Below are positions 20,894-55,855 of a DNA stretch of 56,015 nt, one piece after another; positions within the stretch are counted from its first letter, which is position 1, and the number at the start of each line of letters is the position of its first letter. The notes below the pieces were generated by a model. That model was not told the DNA's origin. It made no database searches and worked only from the letters and a program-made list of their open reading frames with translations. The translations under genes were made by a program, and so were the position numbers. This stretch comes from Pseudomonadota bacterium (GTDB taxonomy: Bacteria > Pseudomonadota > Alphaproteobacteria > Rhodobacterales > Rhodobacteraceae), in NCBI GenBank assembly GCA_027592105.1, contig JAQCLA010000001.1:1-56015 (forward strand). Reading direction: 5' to 3'.

Positions 20894-22264
20894 TTAGGCA
20901 CGCCGGCCTCGCATCGCGTAAAGCCGCCCCGTCTGACACGCGTCACCTGTCAGGCGGGCGGCATCTCCGGTGGCATCGGCACCAATGCCCAGATCCGCCT
21001 CGATCGTGAAGCGCGCGTGCATCCATGTGGCAAGGTCGGCGGCCGCAATCGGCGTGAACGGCCCCTGATTAGGGATCGCGCCCACCGCTTCGACCGCGCG
21101 CCAATGCGCGCCATAGGCCGATGTCATATTGCGCACGCTTGCCAAAACATAACCACCGGGCGCAAGAACACGGCGCACCTCGTCAAGAAAGGCCTCGGGT
21201 GTGGGCATGTGTTCCAGCACCTGCGGCAAAACCACGAGATCGACAGATCCATCCGCCTGCGGCAGTGTCCCATTCACCATCACTTCGCCATGCAGGCGTG
21301 ACATGTCATGCCCTTCACGGCGCAAGCGCTCGGTCATGAAAGACAGGTTATTGGCCGATAGCTCGACAAGGGTCAGCTGCGCATCATGGCCAAGCGCGCC
21401 CATCAGCGCGGTTGTCGTTGTGCCACCCCATCCCATGACTTCGACCACCTTTGCCCCGCTGGGCAATGCCGGCAAAAGCGACATCTCGACCGCCGTTGCC
21501 TCACCCTGCCTGCGCGAGACATAGACACCCGCCAAGGGTGATTTGGCCCAAACCGAATAGCCACGGAAATCGGCCAGCTGGTCCCAACGCCAATGCGCGG
21601 GGTTCCACTCGGCATAGGGATTCGCGTCATTGCGGATCTCCCAATAAGGATAGGCGGCGGCAGGTTTTACCGGATAGCAGCTTGCAGAAGGGCGTTCGAA
21701 TTTTTCCAAGCTGAAAATTTCATGTATCGGGCGGCGCGGCGCCTTATTTTTAGGCGCTGTGGCCTTAGCCCGACCAATGGCCAGCGCGCCGATCACATCA
21801 AATGTCTCGGGCAATCTGATCATCGCTCGCAGGGCAACCTGATCACCGATGCCCGCATTCCAGATGCATTGAAAGCCGCGCAGATGCGCCGATAGCATCA
21901 TGTGATAGCACGCACCCGCCACCGATTGGACGATCGAGAAATTCCCATGCGTCCAACCCTTTTGAAAGCAGAGGTAAATCAGCGCCGAACATTCGGCAAA
22001 GTGATGGTTTCCACCGGAAATATCGCGTGCGCGCCGCTTGCGTGTCGGATCGGCAACGATGACGAAATGCCAATTCTGCTGGTTGCAAGACGATGGCGCC
22101 TCGACCCCATCACGCACGATATCTTCCAGAATTTCAGGGCTGATCAAGCTCTCGTCAAAGTCACGACAAGAGGCACGCGCCGCCAGTCGATCGAGGATAT
22201 CGCGGACATGTGCTGCATCGTCTTGCGGCACAACCGCTTCGGCGTCATCTCGCAAGCGGTTCAC
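20894..22264 (-). CDS. nitroreductase-family / class I SAM methyltransferase-like fusion protein
   Basis: N-terminal RASCRDF...APSSCNQQNWHFVIV; C-terminal LPQADGSVDLVVLPQVLEHMP...EVRRVLAPGG. Confidence 0.8.
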   Translation of the reverse strand: MNRLRDDAEAVVPQDDAAHVRDILDRLAARASCRDFDESLISPEILEDIVRDGVEAPSSCNQQNWHFVIVADPTRKRRARDISGGNHHFAECSALIYLCFQKGWTHGNFSIVQSVAGACYHMMLSAHLRGFQCIWNAGIGDQVALRAMIRLPETFDVIGALAIGRAKATAPKNKAPRRPIHEIFSLEKFERPSASCYPVKPAAAYPYWEIRNDANPYAEWNPAHWRWDQLADFRGYSVWAKSPLAGVYVSRRQGEATAVEMSLLPALPSGAKVVEVMGWGGTTTTALMGALGHDAQLTLVELSANNLSFMTERLRREGHDMSRLHGEVMVNGTLPQADGSVDLVVLPQVLEHMPTPEAFLDEVRRVLAPGGYVLASVRNMTSAYGAHWRAVEAVGAIPNQGPFTPIAAADLATWMHARFTIEADLGIGADATGDAARLTGDACQTGRLYAMRGRRA

Positions 22265-41365: not shown

Positions 41366-42712
41366 TCATTTTCTGTGCTCCTCGAGCCCCAGCTCAACCC
41401 ACATCCAAGCAAAATCGTAATCTGCAATCGGGCTGTCGTCTTGTTTAGCGCTCCGGTTCTCGAGAAGTTTCAGCCACTCGATAACCTTCGCCCGCCCGGC
41501 CGCACTCCGCGTCGCCTGTCGAGGTGATTTGTCGCCCAGCGCTGGAAGCGGCGTGTCCAGCGCCTCACGATAATGCTTGTCCATGTAGTCATGAGTGATC
41601 TGCCTGGCGATCTCGGGCGGGACTTCGTCCGCCTCACGGCTGACAGGCTGCGTTTCGCGCTCGGCGAGCATCTGTGCGATAGTGCGGATCGATGTCAGCG
41701 GCGGCTTCAAAAGGTCCCCAGCGGCACCCACAATCAGTTCCTGGACCCGAGCGGCGCGGGCTTGCGAGTTGACCGAGACCATCAGCGCCCTGCCCTTTAT
41801 CTCTAGCCCCGCCAGTACGGTTCCACCCTCCATCTGCGTATCAAGGATCAGGTCGCCAGCTGCCCTGCCCTTGCCCGCCGGGCGCGGTTCGATCCAGTTC
41901 CAGAATGTTGCGCTGGCGGGGAAGAGACCCGGGATCCGATCAAGGCGCTGGACAAGCTTCTTTTGGGTCGTACTGGCCTTCAGCACAAACCGCATGTCGT
42001 GGAACAGGACCTCGTTACCATCCGAGTTGCAGTAACTGCGCTCGGGCGGCGCAAGCAAACGCGGGATTTCTGTGAGCAGCCAAGCGCTGGTGAAAATCGG
42101 AGCGCATTCGTGGAGTTGCTCGGTCGACAGCGTCAGTGGCGCGCGTTTGCCAACCCGCATGGCCTCCCGCAGCATTGGGCCCAGGAGTTCGAAGGCCTCG
42201 GCAGAAAACGGCAGCACTGCTCCCGAGATCACATGGTGATCTCGCTCGGGCACCACACGAACCGCGATCCTGTCCCACTGCCGCAACGACTGGGTCGCTG
42301 ATTTCTCACGCACTGTGACTGCCGGTCCACCGCGAAGGATGTCTCGAACAACCATCGACGCTCCCGGCTTCACATCGCTGACCTCGTGCAAGCTGATGGG
42401 GGTGTCGCGCAGGGCCGCGAAGTAGGCCCGGTTCAAAACGGCTTCCTTCCATCCGCGCCGCTTCAGATAGAGATCGACGATATTCTCGCCTTCCGGCCCA
42501 AAGCGGCGCCCGAGAAAATCCTCGAAACCACAGCCCCAGAGGGCGCCCGATGCTGGTTCACCGAGCCCGTCGGCCAGGTCCTCACGATCAATATAGAAGG
42601 CCTCCAAGGCCGCGTCGAGATGCTCATCGATAACCGACTGCAACCTCTCGCCCCATCCCTGCTCACGCCTGATGAAGGCGAGAAGCCCCGATATATCGTT
42701 CCGCTCCGCCAA
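41366..42712 (-). CDS. hypothetical protein with an MbcA/ParS/Xre-like C-terminal motif
   Basis: Long ORF with normal amino-acid composition; probable TTG start at 42712 after GAGG; C-terminal LDTPLPALGDKSPRQA. Confidence 0.65.
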   Translation of the reverse strand: MAERNDISGLLAFIRREQGWGERLQSVIDEHLDAALEAFYIDREDLADGLGEPASGALWGCGFEDFLGRRFGPEGENIVDLYLKRRGWKEAVLNRAYFAALRDTPISLHEVSDVKPGASMVVRDILRGGPAVTVREKSATQSLRQWDRIAVRVVPERDHHVISGAVLPFSAEAFELLGPMLREAMRVGKRAPLTLSTEQLHECAPIFTSAWLLTEIPRLLAPPERSYCNSDGNEVLFHDMRFVLKASTTQKKLVQRLDRIPGLFPASATFWNWIEPRPAGKGRAAGDLILDTQMEGGTVLAGLEIKGRALMVSVNSQARAARVQELIVGAAGDLLKPPLTSIRTIAQMLAERETQPVSREADEVPPEIARQITHDYMDKHYREALDTPLPALGDKSPRQATRSAAGRAKVIEWLKLLENRSAKQDDSPIADYDFAWMWVELGLEEHRK

Positions 42713-43083
42713 CCTAACCTCAACCGAATCCGTTTCAATACCGAATAGCATCTGTCCGGCATGCAGGACCAGCGCCCCCCGAGATCGACGTGTTCGGCCC
42801 ACTGCCGCCGTCCAACCACCGACCGGAATGCTGCAGCTGCAGCCCTTATTCGCGACATTCGCCGCGAGCGCGAATTCAGTAGGTGGCCGAATTCCCAGGT
42901 CGCGGACGAACCGCCATTTCGCCGCAATTGCTTCAACGGCGGTTTTCGAGAACCAGTAAATTTTGTCAGATGATCAAGTTACGCATTTAGCAAGCGCTCC
43001 GTGTTGGCAGGATCGTGTGTCGGAAACATGATCGTACCGAACGCCTCGTACTGCTCTTTCAACATTTGTGCGCTCCCAACTGC

Positions 43084-43413
43084 TTAGGAATGACTTTCGT
43101 CGATGCCGCCGATTTCGCCGGTCTGTATCTGATCCGATGAAAAGGCTGCATCACCAACGATGCAAACGCTCTTGCATTCATCTTCGATCAGGACGGATTG
43201 GTGGCCGCATGCATGGCCTGGCGTCGGAATGAGGGAGACCGAACCGTCCTCGGTAATGGGCATTGTGCGGGCAAAGACGCCCCTTACACGCGCATCGTAG
43301 GCCACTGGCGCGAAGATGATGCCGGTCGGCAGCCGGCACATGAGTGAGGGAAACAGCGCGCCGAAGAGCGCCTTGAGACCTGCATCCGCGTTCGCATCTC
43401 CCTGCCTAAACAA
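43084..43413 (-). pseudogene. C-terminal remnant of a metallo-beta-lactamase-fold (AHL lactonase-like) gene
   Basis: LIPTPGHACGHQSV and IVGDAAF are present, but the N-terminal HxHxDH region is absent. Confidence 0.65.
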
Positions 43414-44221
43414 CCAAGCCTAGGTCTTGAAGATAGGCGAAGCCCTTCGGGATGTCCGATTTGCAGCGCAGTTCCAAAACAAGGTGGGGTTCTGCTGTGA
43501 GTTCACGCAGGGCCCGAAAGACTTCGTGCCAATGGATCTCGCCTTCGCCAGGTGCCCAGTGGCGATCTGCGTGACCATCCAGGTCTTGAAGGTGAACATG
43601 GCAAAGCTGGGCACCTGCGTCGCGGATGAAGTAATCCACCGGCGGTGCACCGGACATACGGCGAGCAAGATGAGCGTGGCCTGTGTCGATCGACAATGCA
43701 ATGGCATCAGAGCCGAAGGTATCCACCATCATGCGGCGGCTCGCGGGGTCCACGTCGAGGATGTTTTCGATGACCAAGGTAATCCCCTTGTCCTCTGCTG
43801 CTGCCACAACGGGGGCCATGATCTGGTGAATGCGGTCCAGCTTGGTTTCATCATAGTCGGGTTTCGCCAAACGGTTCCATTGATACCAGCGGGTGTACGG
43901 CGAATGCAGCACCATTTGCCGCGCACCGATACGGTCTGCGGCCTCTAGTGCCTTGAGGAAACGGGCAGTGATCAGCGGCTGCAGTTCAGGGTCCTTGTTG
44001 TCCATGTCCAAACCTTCAAAGGGGCCATGGATACCCAGACGCCCTTGATGCCCGTCGAGCGCGGCCTTGGCTGCTGCGATGCGGTCGTCAAACGCGGTGG
44101 TCAGCCCTTTAAAGCTGCCAAAATCCTGCAATTCGATGTCGCGGTCCGCGCCAAACAACCAGTCCCGGTGGTCAGCGATTTCAGCGGCGGTCAGGCAGGC
44201 GCCGATCTTGAGCGGTTGCAT
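43406..44221 (-). CDS. sugar-phosphate isomerase/epimerase / AP endonuclease 2 TIM-barrel metalloprotein
   Basis: GIHGPF, MVLHS, VIENI, IDTGHAH, HVHLQD, DRHWAPGEG, VLE. Confidence 0.88.
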   Translation of the reverse strand: MQPLKIGACLTAAEIADHRDWLFGADRDIELQDFGSFKGLTTAFDDRIAAAKAALDGHQGRLGIHGPFEGLDMDNKDPELQPLITARFLKALEAADRIGARQMVLHSPYTRWYQWNRLAKPDYDETKLDRIHQIMAPVVAAAEDKGITLVIENILDVDPASRRMMVDTFGSDAIALSIDTGHAHLARRMSGAPPVDYFIRDAGAQLCHVHLQDLDGHADRHWAPGEGEIHWHEVFRALRELTAEPHLVLELRCKSDIPKGFAYLQDLGLVV

Positions 44222-45404
44222 GCTGTGGTCTCCTTGGATCTGGAATCAGGACATAGGTGGCAATTGCAATAGACAGGCAAAGGGACATGGCCAAAAAGCT
44301 GTACCAGCCGCCAAATGTCTGTGTGGTCCATGCAAAGACGAAGGGGGCCGAGGCGTTCACCCCCATTTGGACAAAAGAAATCCAGCCGAGCCGCGCGCCG
44401 TAGCCTTTTGCGCCAAACAGCGCGAGCGGCAACGTGCCCCGTGCGATGGTCTTGATCCCGTCGCCCATGCCATAGAGTGCGGCGGCGGCAATGACGCCCG
44501 GCAGGGTGAAACCGAAGGTCAGCAAGGTCAGGAACCCCGCCATCATCAACCCGAGCGCCAGCGGATATGTCACCAGCGGATACATGTTCCGGCTGACCAG
44601 CATCTCAAAGAACCGGCCGACCGTCTTGAACGGACCGATCACCGCCCCCGCGAGCGCCGCCATCGCCGCGGTATGGCCAAGGTCTTGGACGTTCGTAACC
44701 CAGAGCGTCATCACCGCCCCCATCAGGTAGCCCGAGAAGATGAAGGAGATAACCATCCATAGCATCCCGCGCTTGCGGGTCTCTCCGGTCAGTTCCGGCC
44801 ACTGGGTCTGGTCGGGCTTGGGGGCATCGGGGTCTTTGAGCGCTCCGCGCAGGCCAAAGTAATGGAGGGGAACACAGGTCAGCAAATAGGCAAGGCCAAG
44901 GATCACCCAAGTCGTCTGCCAGCCAAAGCCATTGAAGATCCAAAACGTCAGCGGCCAGAAAATCGTCGATGCAACGCCGCCAAACAGCGTAATGATCGAA
45001 ATCGAACGCGGCGTTGGCACCGTCAGGTCAAGCCGCGCAACGGCTGCAAAAGCGACATTATAAAGCACAAACATCGCCCCTGCCTCGACCAAGAGGATCA
45101 CGGCAAACAGGCTTATGAGACCTTCCACCTTTCCCAGTAGCATAAGCGCCAATCCCGCCGCCAATGATCCAAACGTCATCACCAGGCGACCGCCGAAGCG
45201 GTCGGCCAGTTTGCCAGCAATCGGGGCGAGAAATCCACCAAAGAACAACGCCATCGACAGGACCCCGAAAATCGTGGTCAGCGACATGTCGAGATCACGC
45301 GCCATCTCGGGCAACAGAATCGCATAGGCATAGTACAGCGCGCCGTAGCCCATGATTTGGGTGATCCCGAGTGTGATCGCAGGGATGTAATCGCGGTGGA
45401 TCAC
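44181..45404 (-). CDS. MFS transporter (resembles the ArsK-like subfamily)
   Basis: About 12 TM segments; LGITQIMGYGALYY, GKLADRFGGR, FGGVASTIFWP, ARGTLPLALFG. GTG start at 45404 overlaps the phnM stop. Confidence 0.85.
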   Translation of the reverse strand: MIHRDYIPAITLGITQIMGYGALYYAYAILLPEMARDLDMSLTTIFGVLSMALFFGGFLAPIAGKLADRFGGRLVMTFGSLAAGLALMLLGKVEGLISLFAVILLVEAGAMFVLYNVAFAAVARLDLTVPTPRSISIITLFGGVASTIFWPLTFWIFNGFGWQTTWVILGLAYLLTCVPLHYFGLRGALKDPDAPKPDQTQWPELTGETRKRGMLWMVISFIFSGYLMGAVMTLWVTNVQDLGHTAAMAALAGAVIGPFKTVGRFFEMLVSRNMYPLVTYPLALGLMMAGFLTLLTFGFTLPGVIAAAALYGMGDGIKTIARGTLPLALFGAKGYGARLGWISFVQMGVNASAPFVFAWTTQTFGGWYSFLAMSLCLSIAIATYVLIPDPRRPQHATAQDRRLPDRR

Positions 45405-46606
45405 CCCGCAGGAAACCCGCGATAGGCTTGGCGTCCAGCGACCCATGTGCCTTGGATTGCGGGTGCCTGACAGTCGGGCCAATCGACAAGCACAAGGTCG
45501 GCGCGTTTGCCTTGCGCGATTTCGCCGCGGTCGGTCAGACCCATCGCCTTGGCCGGACCGGAGGAGACGAGTGACCAGATCGTGGAGCGGTTCGCACGTT
45601 TTTCGGCGTCCAGCTTCGCCACCGCAGAGAGCATCGCCGGATAGAAATAATCGGATGCCAGCGCGTCACAAAGCCCCGCTTCGACCATATCGCCAGCCCC
45701 GAGCGAGCCGATATGGCTGCCGCCGCGCGCGGCATTGGGAGAGCCGAAGATGATTGCATCGCCGTTGTCGCGGGCCGCTTGGGCCGCCTCGATTACCATC
45801 GGGAATTCGGCTGTCGTCGCGCCAAGATCGCGGAAATAACGGCGTGTTTCGGCCTTGGTATCGTCATGGCTGAGCATAGGCGCCCCGGCCTTGCGGCCCA
45901 GTTCGGCTACCTTTGCAATGGTCTTTGGCACATCGCTGCGGCGGTCCCAGACCTTGCCCAGCAGCTTCAGATAGGCCTCTTCGGAAATGCCCGACCGATC
46001 CGCCTTTTTCGCAGTGCGCTGGCGCATCCGGTCATCATCAAGACTGGCGATCTTGAAATCCGGCGAGAATTCAAACTCACGGTCCTGCATGGGCACGTCA
46101 TAGGCACGCATGGTCATCGAGGTGTGATCGTTGAACGCCAGAGAGGGCGTCAGTGGGGCCTGCAGGGCCCATTTAATCGTTTCAAGCGCCTCAAAGGCAA
46201 AGGTTTCCCACCTCAGTTGGATACGGTTCTCGACCATCAGACGGGGGGCAAGGCGCTGGATCGCTTCCATAAGGTCGCGCCCGCGGGCAACGTCGCGCAG
46301 GCCGGGTTCCCACCCCAAAGTGATGGCGTGATAGGCGGTGGCGATCCCGTTGCTGGCCAATTGGCGATCCGTATCGATCACCGCCGCATCTATAGGGAAG
46401 AATACGTTGGGACGCGGCATCACCTGACGCTCGAACGCGTCGCCGTGGACGTCGATCATGGCTGGGGCAAGGATGCGGCCGCGCGCGTCGATGACCTCAC
46501 CTTGAACAGGGCCACCGATTTCCGCGATCATGCCGTCTGCAACGGTCACTGTGGTTTCAACGATCTCTTGTGGCAGATAGACCGTAACACCTTGAAAAGT
46601 GATCAC
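45401..46606 (-). CDS. phnM: alpha-D-ribose 1-methylphosphonate 5-triphosphate diphosphatase
   Basis: DVHGDAFE..MPRP, FNDH, LSHDD, AEFP, GSPNAARGGSH, LASDY, DRGEIAQGKRADL. Confidence 0.9.
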   Translation of the reverse strand: MITFQGVTVYLPQEIVETTVTVADGMIAEIGGPVQGEVIDARGRILAPAMIDVHGDAFERQVMPRPNVFFPIDAAVIDTDRQLASNGIATAYHAITLGWEPGLRDVARGRDLMEAIQRLAPRLMVENRIQLRWETFAFEALETIKWALQAPLTPSLAFNDHTSMTMRAYDVPMQDREFEFSPDFKIASLDDDRMRQRTAKKADRSGISEEAYLKLLGKVWDRRSDVPKTIAKVAELGRKAGAPMLSHDDTKAETRRYFRDLGATTAEFPMVIEAAQAARDNGDAIIFGSPNAARGGSHIGSLGAGDMVEAGLCDALASDYFYPAMLSAVAKLDAEKRANRSTIWSLVSSGPAKAMGLTDRGEIAQGKRADLVLVDWPDCQAPAIQGTWVAGRQAYRGFPAG

Positions 46607-47268
46607 TCAGGTCGCTCCATAATCAGGTGCCATCGACCGCCTGGCGCGCCGTCCAGCAGGTCGCTTTCCAAGCGAAGAACGTCGAACTCACCAAACAAAC
46701 GGATCACATCTGTGCTGCCACAGAAATGATGCGGGTGGCGTTTGTCACCTTCATCGTCCTCAAAGACCCATGTATTGCGGGAAATTTCGCGCCCGCCCGG
46801 TAGTTTCGACTGCGTCAAGGCGAGACCGCGTAAGGTCAGCATCGTGCCTTGATACGTCCCGCCGGGGCGCAGGATGCGGAAAATCTCGTTGATTGTCCGC
46901 TGCATGATTTCCTCATCAGCGTGATATACGACGTTGAACGCCAGCACGTGGTCAAAAGAGCCGTCATCAAATGGCAATGCATCCATTTTGCCAAGACGTG
47001 TCTCGATGGACAGTCCCATGCTGGCCGCTTTGCGTGTGAGTTCGGCCAAGCCGTCTTCGGCTGCGTCAAGCCCCGTGGCCTGATGCCCCATGGCCGCATA
47101 CATCAGCGCATGCCGCCCGATCCCGCACCCAAGATCCAGAACCCGAGAGGAAGGGGCCAGAGCTTTCGCATATTCGGCGATGCGGTCTTCGGGTTGTTCC
47201 CAGTCCTCACGTTTGGCCGCGTCATTCCAAGCATCATTCCAATAGGCATGTGCCGTGTCGGTCTTCAT
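46603..47268 (-). CDS. class I SAM-dependent methyltransferase
   Basis: VLDLGCGIGRH, LPFDDGSFDHVLAFNVVYH, ILRPGG. Confidence 0.9.
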   Translation of the reverse strand: MKTDTAHAYWNDAWNDAAKREDWEQPEDRIAEYAKALAPSSRVLDLGCGIGRHALMYAAMGHQATGLDAAEDGLAELTRKAASMGLSIETRLGKMDALPFDDGSFDHVLAFNVVYHADEEIMQRTINEIFRILRPGGTYQGTMLTLRGLALTQSKLPGGREISRNTWVFEDDEGDKRHPHHFCGSTDVIRLFGEFDVLRLESDLLDGAPGGRWHLIMERPE

Positions 47269-48071
47269 CTTTGCTCTCCGATGATCTTGGTGCGGGTCCA
47301 GCCGCTAAGTTGTTCGATAGCGATGACCACAACAGCGATCATCAAAATAACGGACATGGCCGTGGGGTAGTCGAAAAGGTCAAAGCCGACCTTAAGCTCG
47401 ATCCCGATCCCGCCTGCACCGACGAGGCCAAGAATGGTTGATGACCGCACCGCCTTTTCCAGCGCAAAAAGCGATGTTGAGATGAACGCGGGCAATGCGG
47501 CAGGGATCGTGGCACAGGCCACCACATCAAGCTTGCGCGCTCCAGTTGCTGTCAGAGACTCCGCCGGTCCTTTCTCGGCACCTTCCATGTCATCGGCAAA
47601 GAAGCGTCCGCAAAAGCCGACAGTGTCCACGGCGATAGCCAGCATGCCTGCAAAGGGCCCAAGGCCCACAGCCACTACAAAAACCAGCGCCCAAGCGATG
47701 TCAGGCACCGCGCGGATAAAGCCCAGGATGTTACGCACGATCTGGTTGACCCAGATCCCTGCAACCAAGCCACGGGCTGCAAGCAACGCGACGGGGATCG
47801 ACAGGATCACCCCGATCACGGCGCCTGCAACGGCAATCTGCAATGTTTCAACCATCTTCCAACCCAGACGCGCCAGCGTCTGCGGGTCGGTGTTGGGCGG
47901 AAAGGCACGATCCAGAAAATCGGCAAAGCGCGGCGGTGCCGACATCATTTTATCGATCGAGAAGCCTGCCCCCGCAAGGCACCAGACGATCAGCGTAAGA
48001 CCCGAAGCGTAGCCAAGAAAGGCGAGGGCAGAGGGCCGCTCATAACGTGCAGGCAAAGCATGATCAGTCAT
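47265..48071 (-). CDS. phnE: phosphonate ABC transporter permease
   Basis: ETLQIA, RAVPD, AVGLGPFAG, VRSSTILGLVGAGGIG. Confidence 0.92.
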   Translation of the reverse strand: MTDHALPARYERPSALAFLGYASGLTLIVWCLAGAGFSIDKMMSAPPRFADFLDRAFPPNTDPQTLARLGWKMVETLQIAVAGAVIGVILSIPVALLAARGLVAGIWVNQIVRNILGFIRAVPDIAWALVFVVAVGLGPFAGMLAIAVDTVGFCGRFFADDMEGAEKGPAESLTATGARKLDVVACATIPAALPAFISTSLFALEKAVRSSTILGLVGAGGIGIELKVGFDLFDYPTAMSVILMIAVVVIAIEQLSGWTRTKIIGEQR

Positions 48072-48882
48072 AAAGTCCTCGCAGGTCAGAGGCGCTGACG
48101 GATGCGGCGGTAGCGTCCAGCTTCAATCGCCCCTCTGCCAGCCCCAGCAAGCGGTCACCATATTTCAGTGCGTGTTCGATATTGTGCGACGTAAAGACGA
48201 CGGTGACGCCCTCTTCGCGCGCCAGTTTGAAGAACAGATCCATCACGTCTTCGCCCGCTGCTGGGTCGAGCGATGCGCAGGGTTCATCCGCGATCAGAAT
48301 TTCTGGTTGGCCAACAATGGCCCGCGCGATGGCCACGCGCTGTGATTGCCCGCCAGACAAACGATCCGCACGGCGCTGCGCGAAATCTGCCAGCCCCACC
48401 TTTTCAAGGGCCAGTGTCGCGGCATCGCGGGACGCTGTCGGGGCCAGACTATGGCTCCAATGCCGCACTCCGGGGCGCTGGCCGAGCAGGCCGTGAACCA
48501 CATTCGACAGAACCGAAAGACGCGGCACAAGGTTATGCTTTTGCGACACAAGCCCCATGCGGGCCCGCAAGGCGCGCATTTCAGCCATCTTGGCGGCCGA
48601 GGGATCAGTCCCCAGGACCGTGACACGACCGTCACTGGCAGGAATCAACCCCATGAGGCAGCGCAGCAGGGTGGATTTCCCTGTGCCGTTTGCACCGACA
48701 AGGGCCACCGCCTCACCCCGTGCCAGTCGGAAGGACACATCTTCAAACACCGGCGTGTCACCAAACCGTTTGGTGACGCCGTGCGCCTCGATATCAACGG
48801 CAGGAACCGAGGGGATAATCCCCCCGGCTTCGGCGAGCCGCACAGGGGCTGCGGCTGGGGCCTTGGTTAAAAGATCATTCAC
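48064..48882 (-). CDS. phnC: phosphonate ABC transporter ATPase
   Basis: GANGTGKS, LSGGQSQRVAIARA, ADEPCASLDP; GTG start at 48882. Confidence 0.92.
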   Translation of the reverse strand: MNDLLTKAPAAAPVRLAEAGGIIPSVPAVDIEAHGVTKRFGDTPVFEDVSFRLARGEAVALVGANGTGKSTLLRCLMGLIPASDGRVTVLGTDPSAAKMAEMRALRARMGLVSQKHNLVPRLSVLSNVVHGLLGQRPGVRHWSHSLAPTASRDAATLALEKVGLADFAQRRADRLSGGQSQRVAIARAIVGQPEILIADEPCASLDPAAGEDVMDLFFKLAREEGVTVVFTSHNIEHALKYGDRLLGLAEGRLKLDATAASVSASDLRGLYD

Positions 48883-48889
48883 TCTGATC

Positions 48890-49759
48890 TCAGTCGCCAA
48901 TGAAGTTGTCGAACTGCGGGTAGCCCGCATTGGAATACATCGAGCGGACATAGTCATAGGCGCTGTCGTTAATCGCAACGAGGTCCATGCCGACGTATTT
49001 GTCGTTTTCCTCATGCGCGGTGATCCCTGCGATGATCGCATCCTTGTTTTCGAGGATCGCAGTCTGCACCATTTCAGCCGCCTCGGCAGGCACATGTGCG
49101 CCGACCATGATCATGTCGTTCGGCAGGTCACCCGAGCGCGCAATCATCTTGTAAAAGCCGTATGGCAAATCCGTTTGGCCGTTCCGCACACCGATGAAAG
49201 TGCCTGCATTCATGCCAAGCGCATCAATATCGCCGTTGTTCAACGCCTCGAAGGCGATGTTGCGCGACGTGTGGGTTTTCTCAATGTCATTGACTGGGTC
49301 GACACCGTGATCGGCGAGGACCTGCATGGGGCAAAGCATGTTTGAGGTCGAGCCGATATCCCCGAAGGCGACCGACTTGCCGACCAGATCAGCAGGCACG
49401 TTGATGCCGCTGTCGGCCCGCACGATGATCGCACAGTGATAGTCCGGACGGCCCAGACCGATCAGCGGGGTGGCTTCGGTCAACTTGTTGATCACGACAT
49501 ACTCGGCAGGGCCGGACACAACAAAATCGACTGTCTCACCGCGCAGCGCTTCGGCAGCCGCAGTGCGCGAGTTGACGGCGTAGAACTCGAACGTATCGCC
49601 AGTAGCAGCTTCCAGCGCCTCTTTGAACGGACCCCATTCCAGCTGCAGGCGCTCCATGCCTTCAACATCCGTGACAGCCAGTTTCCATGTTTCTGCCGTA
49701 GCCGCGAATGCAGATACAGCCGCGAGGCCAAGGCCCAGAACGATTGATTTGATTTTCAT
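48890..49759 (-). CDS. phnD: PhnD-family phosphate/phosphite/phosphonate-binding protein (divergent)
   Basis: ATG 49759 after GGAGG, signal peptide, FGDIGSTS, LPND. Confidence 0.85.
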   Translation of the reverse strand: MKIKSIVLGLGLAAVSAFAATAETWKLAVTDVEGMERLQLEWGPFKEALEAATGDTFEFYAVNSRTAAAEALRGETVDFVVSGPAEYVVINKLTEATPLIGLGRPDYHCAIIVRADSGINVPADLVGKSVAFGDIGSTSNMLCPMQVLADHGVDPVNDIEKTHTSRNIAFEALNNGDIDALGMNAGTFIGVRNGQTDLPYGFYKMIARSGDLPNDMIMVGAHVPAEAAEMVQTAILENKDAIIAGITAHEENDKYVGMDLVAINDSAYDYVRSMYSNAGYPQFDNFIGD

Positions 49760-49777: not shown

Positions 49778-49793
49778 TTCATTCGGATGATTT
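49778..49793. promoter_or_regulatory. candidate PhnF operator 1
   Basis: TTCATTCGGATGATTT with near-palindromic core TCATTCGGATGA; identical copy at 50678. Confidence 0.7.
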
Positions 49794-49916: not shown

Positions 49917-50489
49917 TCAGGCACTTGTTGCGCAAGAAGACAGAACAATTTTGAACTTTGATGTCTCCTGCCCGCCAAGGGATTTGTCGGCAGTATAAGT
50001 GCTCACCCAAACACCACCTGCTTTTTCGATGACACGCAAAGATGCGAGATTGTCGGGGCTTGCTGTGATTTCGACGTAGTTCAGCCCCGCCATTTTCGCT
50101 TCTTGAAGAATCTCAACAAGTGCAGCGGTTGCCAGCCCTTCACCCTGTCGCCATGGAACAACTGCGAACCCGATGTGACCAGAACACGTGGGCGGCAAAT
50201 CCTCGGTTCCTGGTTGCCATCGCAAACTTATGTGCCCGCAAAATCCATCATCCCATATCCACCGTCGAATACTTGGCAACCGCGGAACTTTCGAACCGTC
50301 GGGGAGAGTAACCGGTCCAGCCTTTGCATCCGGATCATCGAGACTTGAAACAAATGATGCTGCATTGCTTTCGATGCTTTTGATTTGGTCTTGCGCTGCA
50401 TCTGGTCGCAGATTGTCCGGCGACCATCCTCGACGCAAAGCCGAGACGTGATCGGGTATGTGGTCAATACTAGGTCTGAGTAACTTCAC
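49917..50489 (-). CDS. GNAT family N-acetyltransferase
   Basis: GHISLRW, GHIGFAVVPWRQGEGLAT, DNLASLRVIEKAGG. Confidence 0.88.
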   Translation of the reverse strand: MKLLRPSIDHIPDHVSALRRGWSPDNLRPDAAQDQIKSIESNAASFVSSLDDPDAKAGPVTLPDGSKVPRLPSIRRWIWDDGFCGHISLRWQPGTEDLPPTCSGHIGFAVVPWRQGEGLATAALVEILQEAKMAGLNYVEITASPDNLASLRVIEKAGGVWVSTYTADKSLGGQETSKFKIVLSSCATSA

Positions 50490-50608: not shown

Positions 50609-50661
50609 GTGAAGTCTTCGTGACATCACACGGGCCATTGCGCCTGACATATCGATGTCAT
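50609..50661. promoter_or_regulatory. Pho-box-like elements in the divergent promoter
   Basis: Minus strand ATGTCAC-GAAG-ACTTCAC (50609-50626); plus strand CTGACAT-ATCG-ATGTCAT (50644-50661). Confidence 0.6.
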
Positions 50662-50677
50662 AACCCCATGGCATAAA

Positions 50678-50693
50678 TTCATTCGGATGATTT
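50678..50693. promoter_or_regulatory. candidate PhnF operator 2
   Basis: TTCATTCGGATGATTT immediately before the phnF start. Confidence 0.7.
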
Positions 50694-50697
50694 GGAA

Positions 50698-51414
50698 ATG
50701 AACAGAGACAAGTGGCGCCAGATCCGCGCCGAAATCGAGCAGGACATCATGGACGGCGTGCTTCCCGCAGGGGCGAAACTGCCAACCGAGCCAGAGCTGG
50801 TCGCAGTATATGATGCGGGCCGGCACTCGGTGCGCCGCGCGATCACAGATCTTGCAAAGGACGGCTTGCTAAGCGTCGAGCAGGGTCGCGGCACCTTTGT
50901 GCAACCGCGTCCGGTTCTGGAATACAGCATCGGCACGCGGACACGGCTACGGCCCAACCTCGCGCCACAGGGCGTGGATGTATCAAGCGAAAACCTTGGT
51001 GTCGAACACGTGCAGGCAGGCGGCTCAATCGCCGCAGACCTTGGCCTTGAAACCGGTGCGCCGGTCATCGCCAGTGGTCGCATGACCCTCGCGGATGGCA
51101 TCCCGATTTCCTTCGGTACGCTTTATCATGATGCCTCCCGCTTTGCTGAATTTCCCGAACGCCGCGCGGTGCTGGGGTCCGTCAGTGCTGTCTACAAGTC
51201 CTATGGTATTGACGACTATCTGCGCGGCTCAACGCAGTTGAACGCCCGTCCGGCCCGCGCCAGCGAAGCGCAGCGTCTGCGGCAGCATCCCGACATGCCG
51301 GTGATTGTGATCCGTGCCGTTGACACCCTGCTTGACGGCACCCCCATCGCCTGCAGCCGGGTCATCTGGTCCGCCGCACGCGTCAAATTCAACGTTCCCA
51401 ACAAAGAGGACTAG
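50698..51414 (+). CDS. phnF: phosphonate metabolism regulator (GntR/UTRA)
   Basis: WRQI...LPTE...RHSVRRAI...EQGRGTFV...YSIGTRTR; heads phnGHIJKLM. Confidence 0.9.
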   Translation: MNRDKWRQIRAEIEQDIMDGVLPAGAKLPTEPELVAVYDAGRHSVRRAITDLAKDGLLSVEQGRGTFVQPRPVLEYSIGTRTRLRPNLAPQGVDVSSENLGVEHVQAGGSIAADLGLETGAPVIASGRMTLADGIPISFGTLYHDASRFAEFPERRAVLGSVSAVYKSYGIDDYLRGSTQLNARPARASEAQRLRQHPDMPVIVIRAVDTLLDGTPIACSRVIWSAARVKFNVPNKED

Positions 51415-51417
51415 GCC

Positions 51418-51858
51418 ATGCCTGACCCGCATACTCTGGCCAACTATCCGCATGATGTGATGCTGAGCATTCTGGCCAAAGCGGATGCGGTGCGGATCAA
51501 GGCATTTGCCGAAGTACTTATCCCGCAATTGGGCGATATCGCAGTGCTGGAAAACCGAACGGGGCTGGTGATGTTGCCGATGCGGGACACCGCCAAAGGC
51601 GTCAATTTCCACCTTGGCGAAGTCTTGGTCAGTGAGGCCCGGATCGCCGTGGACGGGCGGGATGGCTATGGCATGCGACGCGGGCGCGACCTAGAGGCGG
51701 CGATGGCGATGGCGCTGATCGATCTCGCCGTGGCCAGTGGCGTTTCGCATGACGCCTGCGCAGCATTCCTTGACCAAGAGGGTGCCACCCAGACCGCCGC
51801 CGACACGGACCGTCTTAAGCGTGTCGAGGCCACCCGCGTTGATATGGAGACTTTCTGA
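51418..51858 (+). CDS. phnG: C-P lyase subunit
   Basis: TGLVM, FHLGEVLVSEA, ATRVDMETF. Confidence 0.9.
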   Translation: MPDPHTLANYPHDVMLSILAKADAVRIKAFAEVLIPQLGDIAVLENRTGLVMLPMRDTAKGVNFHLGEVLVSEARIAVDGRDGYGMRRGRDLEAAMAMALIDLAVASGVSHDACAAFLDQEGATQTAADTDRLKRVEATRVDMETF

Positions 51859-52388
51859 TGGGCGCATATCCGATACCGTCCGAATTCGAGGCGCGCACCA
51901 ATGCGACCTATGAAGCCTTGATGTGGGCGTTGTCCCGCCCCGGATTGCCAAGAGACCTGCCATCAGCGGGCCAAGCCGGGATCATTGAAACCCTGATTGA
52001 CCGGGAATGTGCGGTCTATTGTGAAGACGCTGATATGGCGGAACTGGCCGCGCGCAGCGGAGCGGTATTGGCCGCCCCTGAGAAGGCGGATCATCTGTTT
52101 TTGTCTCAGCCGCCCGCGCAATTGACAGGGCTGCGCCAAGGTTCTGACATGTACCCCGAGGAGGGGGCGACATTGGTCATGCCAGTGTCGTTGGGCAGCG
52201 GCGGCACCCTGCGCCTTTCAGGTCCCGGTGTGAACGGTGAGGTCACCCTTTCGCTTTCGGGCATCCCGCAGGGTTTCTGGGCTGAGCGGACCCGCGTCAT
52301 GCGCTATCCCATGGGTTTTGAAGTCTTCCTGCTTGATGGCGCCACAGTCATCGGCATTCCCCGTACAACAGTCGTAGAGGTTCTCTGA
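51858..52388 (+). CDS. phnH: C-P lyase subunit
   Basis: LMWALSRPG, GSDMYPEEGATL, LSGPGV, YPMGFE, GIPRTT. Confidence 0.9.
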   Translation: MGAYPIPSEFEARTNATYEALMWALSRPGLPRDLPSAGQAGIIETLIDRECAVYCEDADMAELAARSGAVLAAPEKADHLFLSQPPAQLTGLRQGSDMYPEEGATLVMPVSLGSGGTLRLSGPGVNGEVTLSLSGIPQGFWAERTRVMRYPMGFEVFLLDGATVIGIPRTTVVEVL

Positions 52389-53446
52389 TGGCCTATGTTG
52401 CAACGCGTGGCGGTGAACGCGCGATTGAGCAATCCCAGCGGCTTTTTCGCGAAGAGATGGGCACGATCACGGCAGAGCGCGTTGCCGAAATCCGCCGCGC
52501 CCTGCCTTATCTGATTGATCGGGTGATGGGCGAAGCCTCACTTTATGACGAAGACCTTGCCGCCCTTGCCCTGGCGCAAACCGGCGGCGAACTTTATGAG
52601 GCGGTGCTCTTGCTGCGCTCCTGGCGCACGACCCAGCCGCGGCTGGCTGTGGCCGCACCTGTGACGCAAGAGGGTTTGTTCACCCATCGTCGCATCTCTG
52701 CCGCTTTCAAGGATATTCCCGGCGGTCAGGTGCTTGGACCAACCCTCGACTATGCCCACCGCATTTTGGCGACCGAGGTGCTGTCGGATCAGGCCTATAC
52801 GCCTGACCCTGTTGAACCGGCGGCCCAGCCCAGCCCGGCAAGGCAGCCCTCGGTTGCCGCATGGCAGGCCGAGAATGATCTGCTGAGCGCCGCGCCAGCG
52901 GATCCGACCGCAGGCAACGATATTCCCGACATCACGCGTGAGCCGCTGCTGTTCCCGTCAAAGCGCGCCCATACGCTGCAATCACTGGCACGGGCCGAAA
53001 CCGGCGGGGTTCTGGCATTGGGGTACGCCGCCCAACGCGGTTACGGCCAAGCCCACCCCACGGTGAACGAGCTACGCTTGGCCGAGGGTGAGGTAATGGT
53101 TCAGCACCCGCGCGGGACCACCTTCAGCGCCGGTCGGGTCAAGATCAGTCAGGCCGAAGTGGTCAACAAAAAGGGCACGCAGCTTGAACTGGGCTTTGCC
53201 GCGACGCTGGGCTGGAACGAGGTCAAGGTGATTGCCGCGGCAACGCTGGATCTTAACAGCGAAGGCGCTGCGAAAGGATCAGCCACGGAAGAGGAATTCT
53301 TTCTCTATCACACCGAAGGCGTCGAAAGCTCGGGCTTTTGCATCCACTTCAAACTGCCCCATTACGTCACGTTCCAATCCTCGCTTGATGCCATGCGGGA
53401 TGCGAAGACCAAGAAGAACGCCAGACAAGCGGAGCCAGCCGAATGA
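52388..53446 (+). CDS. phnI: C-P lyase nucleosidase subunit
   Basis: MAYVATRGGERAI, DRVMGEASLY, RRISAAFKDIPGGQVLGPTLDY, HFKLPHYVTFQS. Confidence 0.95.
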   Translation: MAYVATRGGERAIEQSQRLFREEMGTITAERVAEIRRALPYLIDRVMGEASLYDEDLAALALAQTGGELYEAVLLLRSWRTTQPRLAVAAPVTQEGLFTHRRISAAFKDIPGGQVLGPTLDYAHRILATEVLSDQAYTPDPVEPAAQPSPARQPSVAAWQAENDLLSAAPADPTAGNDIPDITREPLLFPSKRAHTLQSLARAETGGVLALGYAAQRGYGQAHPTVNELRLAEGEVMVQHPRGTTFSAGRVKISQAEVVNKKGTQLELGFAATLGWNEVKVIAAATLDLNSEGAAKGSATEEEFFLYHTEGVESSGFCIHFKLPHYVTFQSSLDAMRDAKTKKNARQAEPAE

Positions 53447-54357
53447 GCCTCAAATCCCTGACAAAAGACTGGGAGCCGATGTCCTATGGTTTTCTTGATG
53501 CATCAGCCAAGTGCGAGATCAGACGCAAGACGCTGAAGGCCATTGCAGTTCCGGGCTGCCAGATCCCTTATGCCAGCCGCGAAGTGCCCATGGCCCGTGG
53601 ATGGGGTACCGGCGGGTTGCAGATCTCTTGCACGCTGATCAATCCGCGGACCACTGTAAAGGTGATCGACCAAGGGGCGGATGACAGCGTCAATGCGGCG
53701 TCAATCCGGCGGTTCTTGTCCCGTGTCTCTGGTGCGCCAACGACGACAGATACGCTCAAGGCGGATCTGATCCAGTCCCGCCACCGCATCCCCGAGGAAA
53801 AACTGCGCGAGGATCAGGTGCTCGTCCTGCAGGTGCCCAACCCAGAGCCGCTGCGGCCGGTGCAACCCAACATGTCCATCGCCCGGCAGATGCATGCAGA
53901 TGCGGATTACGGGCGGATGTGGCTGCAGCTTTATGAGCAGATCGTGCGTTCGGGTCGCGTGATGCAGGGGGCCAGCTATCCATCGCTGGTCCACGGGCGC
54001 TTTGTCATGACCCCGTCGCCAATCCCGCGCTGGGACGTGCCCAAAATGCATATGGCCAAGCACCTCACGATCCTGTCGGCAGGGCGCGAAAAGCGTCTGC
54101 ACGCCGTGCCGCCCTATACGCGGGTCGAACCACTGGTGTTTGACGATGTGCCCTATCAGGTGGAAGAACACGGGCAACTGACCTGCACCCGTTCCGGCGC
54201 CAAAGGGTATTTCATGAACGAAATCCCGCAAAATGACGGAACATCGACCTATGAGGTGTCCGACAGCGAATTGGGCATCAAGACCATTCAAAAAGCGGAT
54301 GGTGATACGGTTGAACTCGGCGACACATGGTATCAAGACGGGGAGATGACCCAATGA
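53443..54357 (+). CDS. phnJ: PhnJ homologue lacking the radical-SAM cysteine motif
   Basis: GWGTGGLQ, KVIDQGADD, IQSRHRIPE, PSPIPRWD and GREKR are conserved; the C-terminal CxxC-x21-C-x5-C reads CTRS...YEVSDSELG. Confidence 0.92.
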   Translation: MSLKSLTKDWEPMSYGFLDASAKCEIRRKTLKAIAVPGCQIPYASREVPMARGWGTGGLQISCTLINPRTTVKVIDQGADDSVNAASIRRFLSRVSGAPTTTDTLKADLIQSRHRIPEEKLREDQVLVLQVPNPEPLRPVQPNMSIARQMHADADYGRMWLQLYEQIVRSGRVMQGASYPSLVHGRFVMTPSPIPRWDVPKMHMAKHLTILSAGREKRLHAVPPYTRVEPLVFDDVPYQVEEHGQLTCTRSGAKGYFMNEIPQNDGTSTYEVSDSELGIKTIQKADGDTVELGDTWYQDGEMTQ

Positions 54358-55142
54358 TGGACCCGCCCCAGATCGTCAAAACGCGGCCTTTGCTGCTTGC
54401 ACGGGGGGTCAGTAAATCCTTTGGCGCGGTCAAAGCGCTACGGGATGTTTCCGCCACCGTTTATCCAGGCGAGGTTCTGGGCATTGTCGGTGAAAGCGGA
54501 TCAGGCAAATCGACCTTTCTGCGCTGTCTCAACCTTGAAGAGACACCGGACGAAGGCAGCTATACCCTTGATCTGCCGGATGTGCAGGGCAATCTGTTTG
54601 ATCTTGACCGCTATGCCCGCCGCATGCTGTGCGCCACGCGGATCGGGATTGTCTATCAGAACCCGCATTTGGGGTTGCTGATGAAACACTCGTCATCGGG
54701 CAACGTGGCCGAACGGCTGTTGGTCGCGGGCGAACGGCGCTTTCATGTGTTGCGCGAAAAGGCGCGGGGTGCATTGGATGCATCCGAATTCCCGTTGGAG
54801 CGGATGGATGCGCCGCCGATCGAACTATCGGGAGGGATGCAGCAACGGGTGCAACTCGCCAAAGCGATCGCGCTGGAACCTGCGTTGCTGTTGCTGGATG
54901 AGCCGACAACGGGATTGGATGTCAGCGTGCAGGCCCTTGTGCTTGATACGCTGAAAAAGCTGCAACAAGAGCGCAAGATCACCATGGTGATCGTCAGCCA
55001 CGACCTTGGTGTCATACGCACGTTGTCTGACCGTGTGATGGTGATGAAAAGCGGTCAGGTGGTTGAAGAAGGTCTAGCCGATCAGGTCTTTCAGGACCCG
55101 CAACACGCCTATACGCAACAACTGGTGCATGCAAAACTATGA
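54354..55142 (+). CDS. phnK: C-P lyase ABC-ATPase subunit
   Basis: GESGSGKS, LSGGMQQRVQLA, DEPTTGLDVSVQA, DPQHAYTQ; start 54354 (ATGA overlap). Confidence 0.93.
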   Translation: MMDPPQIVKTRPLLLARGVSKSFGAVKALRDVSATVYPGEVLGIVGESGSGKSTFLRCLNLEETPDEGSYTLDLPDVQGNLFDLDRYARRMLCATRIGIVYQNPHLGLLMKHSSSGNVAERLLVAGERRFHVLREKARGALDASEFPLERMDAPPIELSGGMQQRVQLAKAIALEPALLLLDEPTTGLDVSVQALVLDTLKKLQQERKITMVIVSHDLGVIRTLSDRVMVMKSGQVVEEGLADQVFQDPQHAYTQQLVHAKL

Positions 55143-55855
55143 CTGTTCTTGATGTTCGCGGCCTGTCCAAGGGCTTTATCATGCACCATCTTCGCACCCG
55201 CATGGGCGCGTTTGAGGATATCAGCTTTCAGCTCAATGCCGGCGAGTTTTTGTTGCTGAAAGGTAAGAACGGGGCGGGAAAGTCCACGCTGCTGCGAACG
55301 CTTTATCGCAGCTACCTTTCGCAAGGTGGCGAGATCCTGTTCCACTCGGACCACGGCGTCATCGATCTGGCTAAGGCCGCGGATGTGGATGTGTCCTTCC
55401 TGCGCCGTACCGAGATCGGCTTTGTCACACAATTCCTGACAGCGCGCCCTCGGGTGACCGCGCAGGATCTGGTGGCCGAGCCACTGCGGCTTGCAGGTCA
55501 GCCCGCGGAGGAGGCGCTGCGCACTGCGCGCCATTGGCTGAATGCTTTTGGTGTCAAGGAAGAGCTTTGGGCGGCGTACCCAACAACTTTTTCTGGCGGT
55601 GAGCAGCAAAAGGTCAATCTGGCCCGCGCCCTTATCCTGCCGCAGCGTTTGTTGTTGCTTGACGAACCCACCGCCTCGCTTGACGTCATCGCCCGTGCGG
55701 CTTTGGTAGAACGTCTGGCCGAGCTCAAAGCGCAAGGCACGGCGATGATCGGCGTATTCCACCACCCCGGCGATGTGGCCGCATTGATTGACCGCGAAAT
55801 TGACCTGACCCCCGATACTGCGCCCGAAGAGGACCGAGATGATGTGGCTGTCTGA
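55139..55855 (+). CDS. phnL: C-P lyase ABC-ATPase-like subunit
   Basis: GKNGAGKS, IGFVTQFL, PTTFSGGEQQKVNLAR, GVFH. Confidence 0.93.
   Translation: MTVLDVRGLSKGFIMHHLRTRMGAFEDISFQLNAGEFLLLKGKNGAGKSTLLRTLYRSYLSQGGEILFHSDHGVIDLAKAADVDVSFLRRTEIGFVTQFLTARPRVTAQDLVAEPLRLAGQPAEEALRTARHWLNAFGVKEELWAAYPTTFSGGEQQKVNLARALILPQRLLLLDEPTASLDVIARAALVERLAELKAQGTAMIGVFHHPGDVAALIDREIDLTPDTAPEEDRDDVAV

Follow-up and report, generated by a model that had tools for sequence, protein, structure and literature searches.

The closest described relative of the locus analyzed here is the Escherichia coli C-P (carbon–phosphorus) lyase. In the mechanism derived for that enzyme in vitro, Cys241, Cys244 and Cys266 of PhnJ provide the cluster and Cys272 makes the attack on phosphorus (PMC7916636), and the four PhnJ cysteines are treated as conserved (PMC11978286). 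The kinetic work behind this scheme used isolated, tagged PhnJ (PMC9947105, PMC7916636), and the scheme has a gap, as the cysteines lie ~30 Å from Gly32 in the E. coli structures (PMC9947105). By cryo-electron microscopy, product-site residues of E. coli PhnJ and PhnI were seen to bind zinc and a modeled cyclic-phosphate ligand (PMC9947105). Here we describe a phn operon in a 56,015-nucleotide stretch of Rhodobacteraceae DNA (contig JAQCLA010000001.1; the window, meaning this whole stretch) whose PhnJ lacks three of the four cysteines and belongs to a conserved lineage. At a probability of about 0.58, we read the variant as a working phosphonate lyase that would ribosylate its substrate, trim it with PhnM and cleave it at the His-metal site without a PhnJ cluster.

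The variant resembles the E. coli C-P lyase in its gene order (G-H-I-J-K-L-M), in the 48% identity and predicted fold of PhnJ, C-terminal domain included, and in its product-binding and zinc residues, which are the same; Gly32 is also kept. Unlike the E. coli system, it lacks Cys244, Cys266 and Cys272 (all four cysteines are gone in some relatives), carries an added C-terminal tail, a PhnI cysteine near His328, a different PhnF helix and an operator candidate, and usually has no phnN or phnP in the cluster. The clusters of Synechococcus JA-2-3B'a(2-13) and of the Thermus thermophilus HB8 plasmid pVV8 belong to the same lineage, and both have PhnJ proteins without the three cysteines. Unlike the window, the Synechococcus/Thermus branch carries Ala in place of the PhnI cysteine and lacks phnF, and pVV8 has a LacI-type regulator. 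In the passages of PMC5529391 that mention pVV8 as rich in phosphonate genes, and in those of PMC5955973 that present the Synechococcus cluster as phosphonate genes, the missing cysteines go unremarked. The PhnJ cysteines are not mentioned in PMC6852614, and no description of a Cys-less PhnJ lineage was found in the literature searched, a body that left most subscription journals outside its coverage.

A conserved PhnJ lineage lacking radical-SAM cysteines

The phnJ open reading frame (ORF) encodes 304 residues with zero internal stops and overlaps both the phnI stop and the phnK start. Its product matches Pfam PhnJ (PF06007) with 387 bits against a curated cut-off of 25 and is 48% identical to E. 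coli PhnJ (E 1.7e-79). The AlphaFold model superimposes on E. coli PhnJ (4xb6_D) with a Z score of 34.4 and a root mean square deviation (rmsd) of 2.3 Å over 272 residues, and includes the central insertion and C-terminal domains of the PhnJ fold. In the alignment to E. coli K-12 PhnJ (NC_000913.3), whose numbering is used throughout, Cys241 corresponds to Cys248 of the window protein (codon 54184), and Cys244, Cys266 and Cys272 correspond to Ser251, Val272 and Gly278 (54274–54276), respectively. Thus, the cluster motif CX2CX21C reads C, S, V in the window, and the catalytic Cys272 is Gly here and G, A, M, V or L across the variant lineage. The His/zinc product site, by contrast with these losses, is present: the window PhnJ keeps Gly47–Thr50, Arg107, His108 and Gln124, and its PhnI keeps His219, His328 and His333. 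Every one of the 34 variants sampled below has R107, H108 and Q124, and the three PhnI histidines stand in all 33 PhnI rows. Gly32 (G38 in the window) is retained in 32 of 33 variants and in all 112 full-length proteins of the deep branch described below. The Gly32 site is Ala in a Synechococcus variant (L030:9986-10852) and Ser in one four-cysteine protein (L077). Profile, fold, context and product site thus identify the window protein as a PhnJ, yet it lacks the two cysteine features that define the radical S-adenosylmethionine (SAM) enzyme; judged from its residues, it has no means of holding a CX2CX21C cluster or of forming a Cys272 thiyl radical. A first-pass annotation of the window, made from the sequence alone, had described just this: a full-length ORF coupled to phnI and phnK, a Cys241 equivalent as sole survivor of the four cysteines, retained Gly32, His108 and PhnI zinc histidines, and a PhnJ that is not a canonical radical-SAM enzyme. 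Our alignments agree on each point.

Cysteine was absent at positions 244, 266 and 272 in all 121 sequences formed by the window PhnJ and its 120 nearest listed homologs (mostly 83–93% identical), which excludes chance or strain-specific damage. When 34 variant loci were compared with 53 loci encoding four-cysteine PhnJ (33 and 52 rows, respectively, for PhnI), the loss was found in 34 of 34 and all four cysteines in 53 of 53. Among the best 80 genome loci from the 6 of 64 parts scanned, 30 were of the variant type, with hosts in Alphaproteobacteria and Chloroflexota, a Deinococcus and a hot-spring Synechococcus; a variant PhnJ is also encoded on several rhizobial plasmids and on pVV8. The lineage thus covers Alphaproteobacteria, Chloroflexota, Deinococcota and hot-spring Synechococcus. 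With the C-terminal domain excluded, the variants formed one side of a branch both in a quick tree (34 of 86 rows; support 93 in the Shimodaira–Hasegawa-like approximate likelihood ratio test, SH-aLRT) and in a FastTree phylogeny from which short PhnJ rows had been left out (53 of 135 rows; support 99). Pairwise ratios of nonsynonymous to synonymous substitution (dN/dS), from a Nei–Gojobori script over dS values of 0.05–1.5 and pairs that are not independent, gave medians of 0.137 (17 window pairs), 0.195 (247 variant pairs) and 0.245 (602 four-cysteine pairs). Indeed, the group sharing the loss, the low dN/dS (~0.14 for the window) and the conserved gene order that the first-pass annotation had looked for were all recovered, and the case it had named as refuting, a loss unique to one strain under relaxed selection, is ruled out by the 121 shared losses and the low dN/dS. 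The variant PhnJ is a conserved clade under purifying selection, not a product of decay.

The C-terminal domain and candidate substitutes for the cluster

Modeled alone, the C-terminal domain of the window PhnJ was predicted with a confidence (predicted local distance difference test, pLDDT) of 92, and its best structural match was the C-terminal domain of E. coli PhnJ (Z 5.1, rmsd 1.4 Å, 42 residues). The other 10 of its 11 matches at a Z of at least 2 were ribosomal chains, all weak (Z 2.1–2.7, Foldseek E >0.4), which we take to be eL24/Rlp24, a treble-clef zinc finger. Zinc-finger paralogs occur in C-plus and C-minus forms, including C-minus ribosomal proteins that lack metal, and by analogy the domain may be a metal-free version of a zinc-finger-type fold. 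Its likeness to the knuckle-hairpin-helix fold of treble-clef fingers (eL24/TRASH-like) would lie in these consistent but weak structural matches and, as described next, in a ligand loss that recurs in the same direction; as a difference, the finger here belongs to an enzyme subunit for which an iron–sulfur (Fe-S) cluster has been proposed. The dN/dS of the domain is 0.34 in variants and 0.35 in four-cysteine proteins, showing equal constraint in both, and the residues of a C-terminal tail, G-x-T-W-Y-x-x-G, are invariant in all 121 sequences.

The cysteines have also been lost outside the main clade. In the FastTree phylogeny, six metagenome loci with cysteine loss sit among four-cysteine PhnJ proteins, apart from the main variants. 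Four of these, L224–L227 (Cys, Ser, Ala, Ala), are 77–80% identical in PhnJ to the four-cysteine locus L228 and 75–77% identical to it in PhnI, the zinc site of which is canonical; of the other two, L270 keeps two cysteines and L234 keeps one. To judge from this placement, the same loss arose more than once in the PhnJ family. Each time it took the same direction, Cys244 to Ser or Thr, Cys266 to a hydrophobic residue and Cys241 last, which is the pattern expected of a dispensable structural metal finger.

No general substitute for the lost residues was apparent. The first-pass annotation had pointed to a new cysteine directly after Gly32 (PGCQ), which is real; 21 of the 34 variant proteins have it, as does one of the 53 four-cysteine proteins, and the deep branches lack it, so it represents a late substitution rather than a replacement, and the general compensation that it might have offered was rejected. 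All 34 variants of the first sample retain Cys241, and none of them has cysteine at position 244 or 266. Among 120 relatives from the Deinococcota/Chloroflexota deep branch, however, 65 have Cys at position 241, 43 have Asp and 10 have Ser, and cysteine is entirely absent from 43 of the 112 full-length proteins; as 53 of the 120 carry Asp or Ser at 241, the retained Cys241 was rejected as a replacement ligand. Hydrophobic residues occupy position 266 throughout, V, L, I or M in the 34 variants and L, I or V in the 120 deep-branch proteins, and position 272 varies freely. A third candidate is a PhnI cysteine two residues before His328, which is present in 31 of 33 variants compared with 3 of 52 four-cysteine operons, and in all 10 main-lineage loci that combine a cysteine-free PhnJ with a readable PhnI. 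This position is Ala in the Synechococcus/Thermus branch and Val in the second-loss group, and a universal thiyl at PhnI 326 was rejected on the strength of these two Cys-less groups. Alignments of the variant PhnG, PhnH, PhnI, PhnK, PhnL and PhnM proteins contained no conserved cysteine cluster. As a separate observation on PhnK, a four-cysteine insertion relative to E. coli occurs in 19 of 52 canonical proteins and in 0 of 34 variants.

Proposed route and alternative explanations

The anatomy is what the data show: the ligands are gone while each product-binding residue named for E. coli by cryo-electron microscopy stays, selection is purifying, many genomes have the variant as their sole copy, some relatives contain no cysteine, and a second loss took place elsewhere in the family. 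The route that we infer from this anatomy is conditional in all its chemical steps. Under phosphate shortage and upon release of the operon's own PhnF, a PhnCDE-type transporter would import an organophosphonate, which PhnGHIL and ATP would ribosylate and from which PhnM would remove pyrophosphate. At the His site, PhnK and PhnL would then shut the core over the substrate. Here the ribose 2'-oxygen might attack phosphorus directly, replacing the Cys272 thioester step, with one-electron chemistry supplied by a redox metal at the His site or by a Gly32 radical set in trans by a host enzyme, and the carbon group would leave to give ribose 1,2-cyclic phosphate 5-phosphate; this is the least certain step. 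Finally, DUF1045/PhnN-type or host phosphoesterases would complete the route. DUF1045 and phnN lie within a Mesorhizobium variant operon and DUF1045 adjoins the sole-copy operon of genome G096, an arrangement that suggests the usual cyclic-phosphate product, although neither gene is present in most variant clusters. Synechococcus JA-2-3B'a(2-13), which carries the variant, is said to release methane or ethane, unlike its phn-less sister, and to grow only after a long lag.

Several points weigh against a working lyase of this kind. Alkane release from methylphosphonate requires radical chemistry, and here lies the main weakness of the proposal, as a search confined to the neighborhoods of 11 variant loci turned up no radical source: of 59 ORFs (58 chosen among the 104 candidates of 10 loci, and one at L137), none matched a radical-SAM family. 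The likeness of the C-terminal model to eL24 is weak, Gly32 has exceptions (Ala in one of 33 variants and Ser in one of 53 four-cysteine proteins), and PhnI carries lineage-specific changes (E252 lost, D318 replaced by E in 29 of 33, M287 by A or G). The operon's own operator candidate, and the second, more distant phnJ that 7 of 8 host-family carriers keep, would each fit a different substrate. The in vitro mechanism of the E. coli enzyme assigns both the cluster and the attack on phosphorus to the missing cysteines (PMC7916636). The growth evidence for the Synechococcus carrier is second-hand and includes no knockout in the account given (PMC5955973), and other, unrelated C-P cleaving activities have been reported in these Synechococcus (PMC3266647, PMC10574752).

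The strongest alternative, which we consider possible but doubtful, is that radical chemistry was abandoned in favor of polar 2'-OH cyclization at the zinc site, acting on substrates with good leaving groups (P-O, P-N, P-S or P-H bonds, or activated phosphonates such as phosphonoacetate). It would account for the lack of a cysteine radical site and of a radical-SAM neighbor among the 59 ORFs, for the coexisting second phnJ and for the PhnI changes, and it is compatible with the E. coli complex, in which the cyclic-phosphate ligand was modeled with no phosphonate supplied (PMC9947105). The control of the operon also speaks for it. A palindromic operator candidate with the consensus TCATTCGRATGA lies just upstream of phnF, and its 16-mer has two sites at ≤2 mismatches in the 2.74-Mb genome, both of them in the window. 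At the same tolerance it was found upstream of phnF in 24 of 26 variant-locus rows compared with 1 of 31 four-cysteine rows, and it also precedes 4 of 5 D'-type genes; in the eight variant-bearing genomes of the host family, 11 of 12 exact matches lie upstream of phnF, phnC or phnD'. A degenerate form of the pattern matches 35 of 192 family genomes without a variant and is not diagnostic genome-wide, so that position carries the evidence. The PhnF helix reads GRHS in the variant lineage and NRHT in most four-cysteine operons. From its position, palindromy and lineage match, the candidate is probably bound by the adjacent PhnF. Control of this separate kind may reflect another inducer or range of substrates and keeps alive the substrate switch that the first-pass annotation had proposed.

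Other clues argue against this switch. Phosphite binders need an aromatic cap at the position of E. coli PhnD Asp205, and HtxB replaces the pocket histidine (PMC5700983). Variant-linked PhnD proteins belong to the same binding-protein family as PtxB and HtxB and share phosphonyl-oxygen ligands with them (PMC5700983); unlike PtxB and HtxB, none has the cap. In proteins from other loci, the window's own downstream phnD being unassembled, none of 34 has an aromatic residue at position 205, where all carry G, T, S or D, and His157, the residue replaced in HtxB, is kept in 29 of 29 variant-linked PhnD-type rows. Most alphaproteobacterial variant-linked pockets are those of ordinary rhizobial C-P lyase PhnD (pocket context from PMC12718374). 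Synechococcus JA-2-3B'a(2-13), whose PhnJ (ABD01166.1, P0129) lacks the three cysteines, is reported to grow on phosphonates as sole phosphorus source (PMC5955973) and was scored positive for phnI, phnJ and phnM and negative for the other surveyed phosphonate genes (PMC9381506). The separate loss in L224–L227 occurred without any change at the PhnI site, and close homologs of the divergent transporter gene phnD' occur in 6 of 8 variant-bearing genomes and also in 8 of 192 others, in which no variant was found. Given the intact zinc-site residues, the missing phosphite cap and the Synechococcus growth report, a switch to P-O, P-N, P-S or P-H substrates is the weaker reading, and that part of the first-pass annotation is weakly supported.

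A bolder reading of the whole family is put forward as a speculation that is probably wrong: in all C-P lyases the four-cysteine site may be a structural zinc finger instead of a catalytic Fe-S center, in which case the enzymes that naturally lack cysteine would show C-P cleavage and aerobic methane release to take place at the PhnI/PhnJ His-metal site by undescribed chemistry. If true, this would explain the 30-Å gap between the cysteines and Gly32.

It is quite unlikely that the variant complex ribosylates or scaffolds only, while a four-cysteine PhnJ or another enzyme cleaves the C-P bond in the same cell. This explanation fits the host family, where phnJ occurs in 95 of 200 genomes and the variant in eight, seven of them with the second phnJ noted above; in the window genome itself, contig C272 carries another phn operon, with phnN and a four-cysteine PhnJ. 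It does not fit genomes outside this family, for which completeness was not reported: all 5 non-alphaproteobacterial genomes tested had the variant as their one PhnJ match, as did all 4 positives among 12 genomes of the genus Synechococcus, and in Deinococcota, where 26 of 251 genomes have phnJ, 25 of 26 gave a single match (22 of 25 scorable loci variant and 3 four-cysteine). The variant is also the sole copy in G096, which is 99% complete. These sole-copy genomes do not support the scaffold role, as suggested by the first-pass annotation, as a general one. In one further genome, four-cysteine and cysteine-poor phn operons lie head to tail (L003:1950-10924).

We give very little credence to the idea that the domain still binds Fe-S, be it through other ligands or through new cysteines of other subunits. 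The constant Cys241 of the first sample and the PhnI cysteine near His328, including its presence in the ten loci with cysteine-free PhnJ, are what one would cite for it. Against it stand the uniformly hydrophobic position 266 (34 of 34 and 120 of 120) and freely varying position 272, the lack of a conserved cysteine cluster on the other Phn subunits, and the Ala and Val that replace the PhnI cysteine in two groups, as well as its occurrence in 3 of 52 four-cysteine operons. Decay to a non-functional paralog, for which the loss of residues reported essential in E. coli might speak, is hardly credible in view of a dN/dS far below 1, intact frames and gene order across several phyla and a conserved operator candidate. 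Thus, where the first-pass annotation read repurposing rather than decay, the second half holds, as 121 of 121 sequences share the loss at a dN/dS of ~0.14; the first half, as repurposing to other substrates, is weakly supported.

Features of the window and implications

The features of the operon and its surroundings are listed in Table 1. The operon had been annotated as intact; as the contig ends inside phnM (~55842 onward), it is visible intact from phnF to phnL only. The window's genome, which is 78% complete, yielded no close match to the phnM-phnCDEE that follows downstream in relatives. In the variant lineage, PhnK keeps 59 of 65 near-invariant columns. An NCBIfam scan of the window returned no PhnJ or PhnI match, and Rfam had no match in the window. 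For the operon no RNA holder was listed, a result that says nothing about its expression. The Pho-box-like repeat upstream of phnF is not above chance alone, since 26 of 100 shuffles reached a 2-mismatch match.

Table 1. Features of the phn locus and its divergent neighbor, in window coordinates
Feature	Position	Strand	Evidence
Divergent, likely co-regulated module: atypical phnD', phnC', phnE', SAM methyltransferase, second phnM, major facilitator superfamily (MFS) exporter, TIM-barrel protein	43406..49759	-	
Second operator-candidate copy, upstream of divergent transporter operon	49778..49791	+	16-mer match
Pho-box-like direct repeat upstream of phnF, weak	50644..50661	+	Lone 2-mismatch match in window
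Palindromic operator candidate just upstream of phnF	50678..50691	+	Putative PhnF site
phnF regulator, ATG at 50698, lineage-typical helix-turn-helix GRHS	50692..51414	+	TIGR02325 above cut-off
phnG	51418..51858	+	TIGR03293, 79 bits, under cut-off 89
phnH	51858..52388	+	TIGR03292, 105 bits, over cut-off
phnI; zinc His codons 53345, 53360; lineage-typical Cys codon 53339	52388..53446	+	Pfam PhnI, 360 bits
phnJ, cysteine-poor lineage (Cys241 equivalent alone kept)	53443..54357	+	ORF, Pfam PhnJ, E. coli alignment, AlphaFold model
PhnJ C-terminal domain, predicted folded without metal ligands, with lineage-specific tail	54151..54354	+	Model pLDDT 92; E. coli domain match
phnK, ATP-binding cassette (ABC) ATPase, catalytic motifs visible	54354..55142	+	TIGR02323 best match, under cut-off
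phnL, ABC ATPase	55139..55855	+	TIGR02324 best match, 242 bits, cut-off 256
phnM 5' end, cut by contig end	55842..56015	+	PhnM models cover residues 1-58

Within the divergent module, phnD' (48890-49759, minus strand) aligns Arg, Glu and Arg to Tyr47, Ser68 and His157 of E. coli PhnD, a pocket that suggests a more anionic ligand, and it travels with the SAM methyltransferase and second phnM. The MFS exporter (44181-45482, minus strand) is ArsK-like, with 285 bits under a cut-off of 400; this type and weak ArsP-like permeases recur beside variant operons (L007, L012, L019, L029) and may export an organic product or imported arsenic analogues. A GNAT acetyltransferase (49917-50489, minus strand) lies between the two operator candidates, has homologs near four other variant loci and could have a PhnO-like role. 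Farther upstream, positions 360-34000 form a long catabolic region with a hydantoinase/oxoprolinase, three isochorismatases, three MmgE/PrpD proteins, two proteins of the phosphoenolpyruvate (PEP)-mutase/isocitrate-lyase family, aconitase subunits, racemases and a tripartite ATP-independent periplasmic (TRAP) transporter. A nitroreductase domain is fused to a methyltransferase domain at 20897-22264 (minus strand), and a 478-residue ORF at 41366-42802 (minus strand) matched neither NCBIfam nor Pfam models at the thresholds applied.

The mechanism of C-P lyase is acknowledged to pose a problem, with the proposed cluster site ~30 Å from the proposed glycyl radical (PMC9947105). A large natural lineage without the cluster ligands, together with a ~80%-identical pair of four-cysteine and one-cysteine proteins, makes the role of the cysteines directly testable. 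Even with curation by residue, a survey counted phnJ as present in a variant-bearing Synechococcus strain (PMC9381506). If the variant enzymes release no alkanes, phnJ-based surveys of aerobic methane potential overcount; if they do, there is a second or revised chemistry of C-P cleavage.

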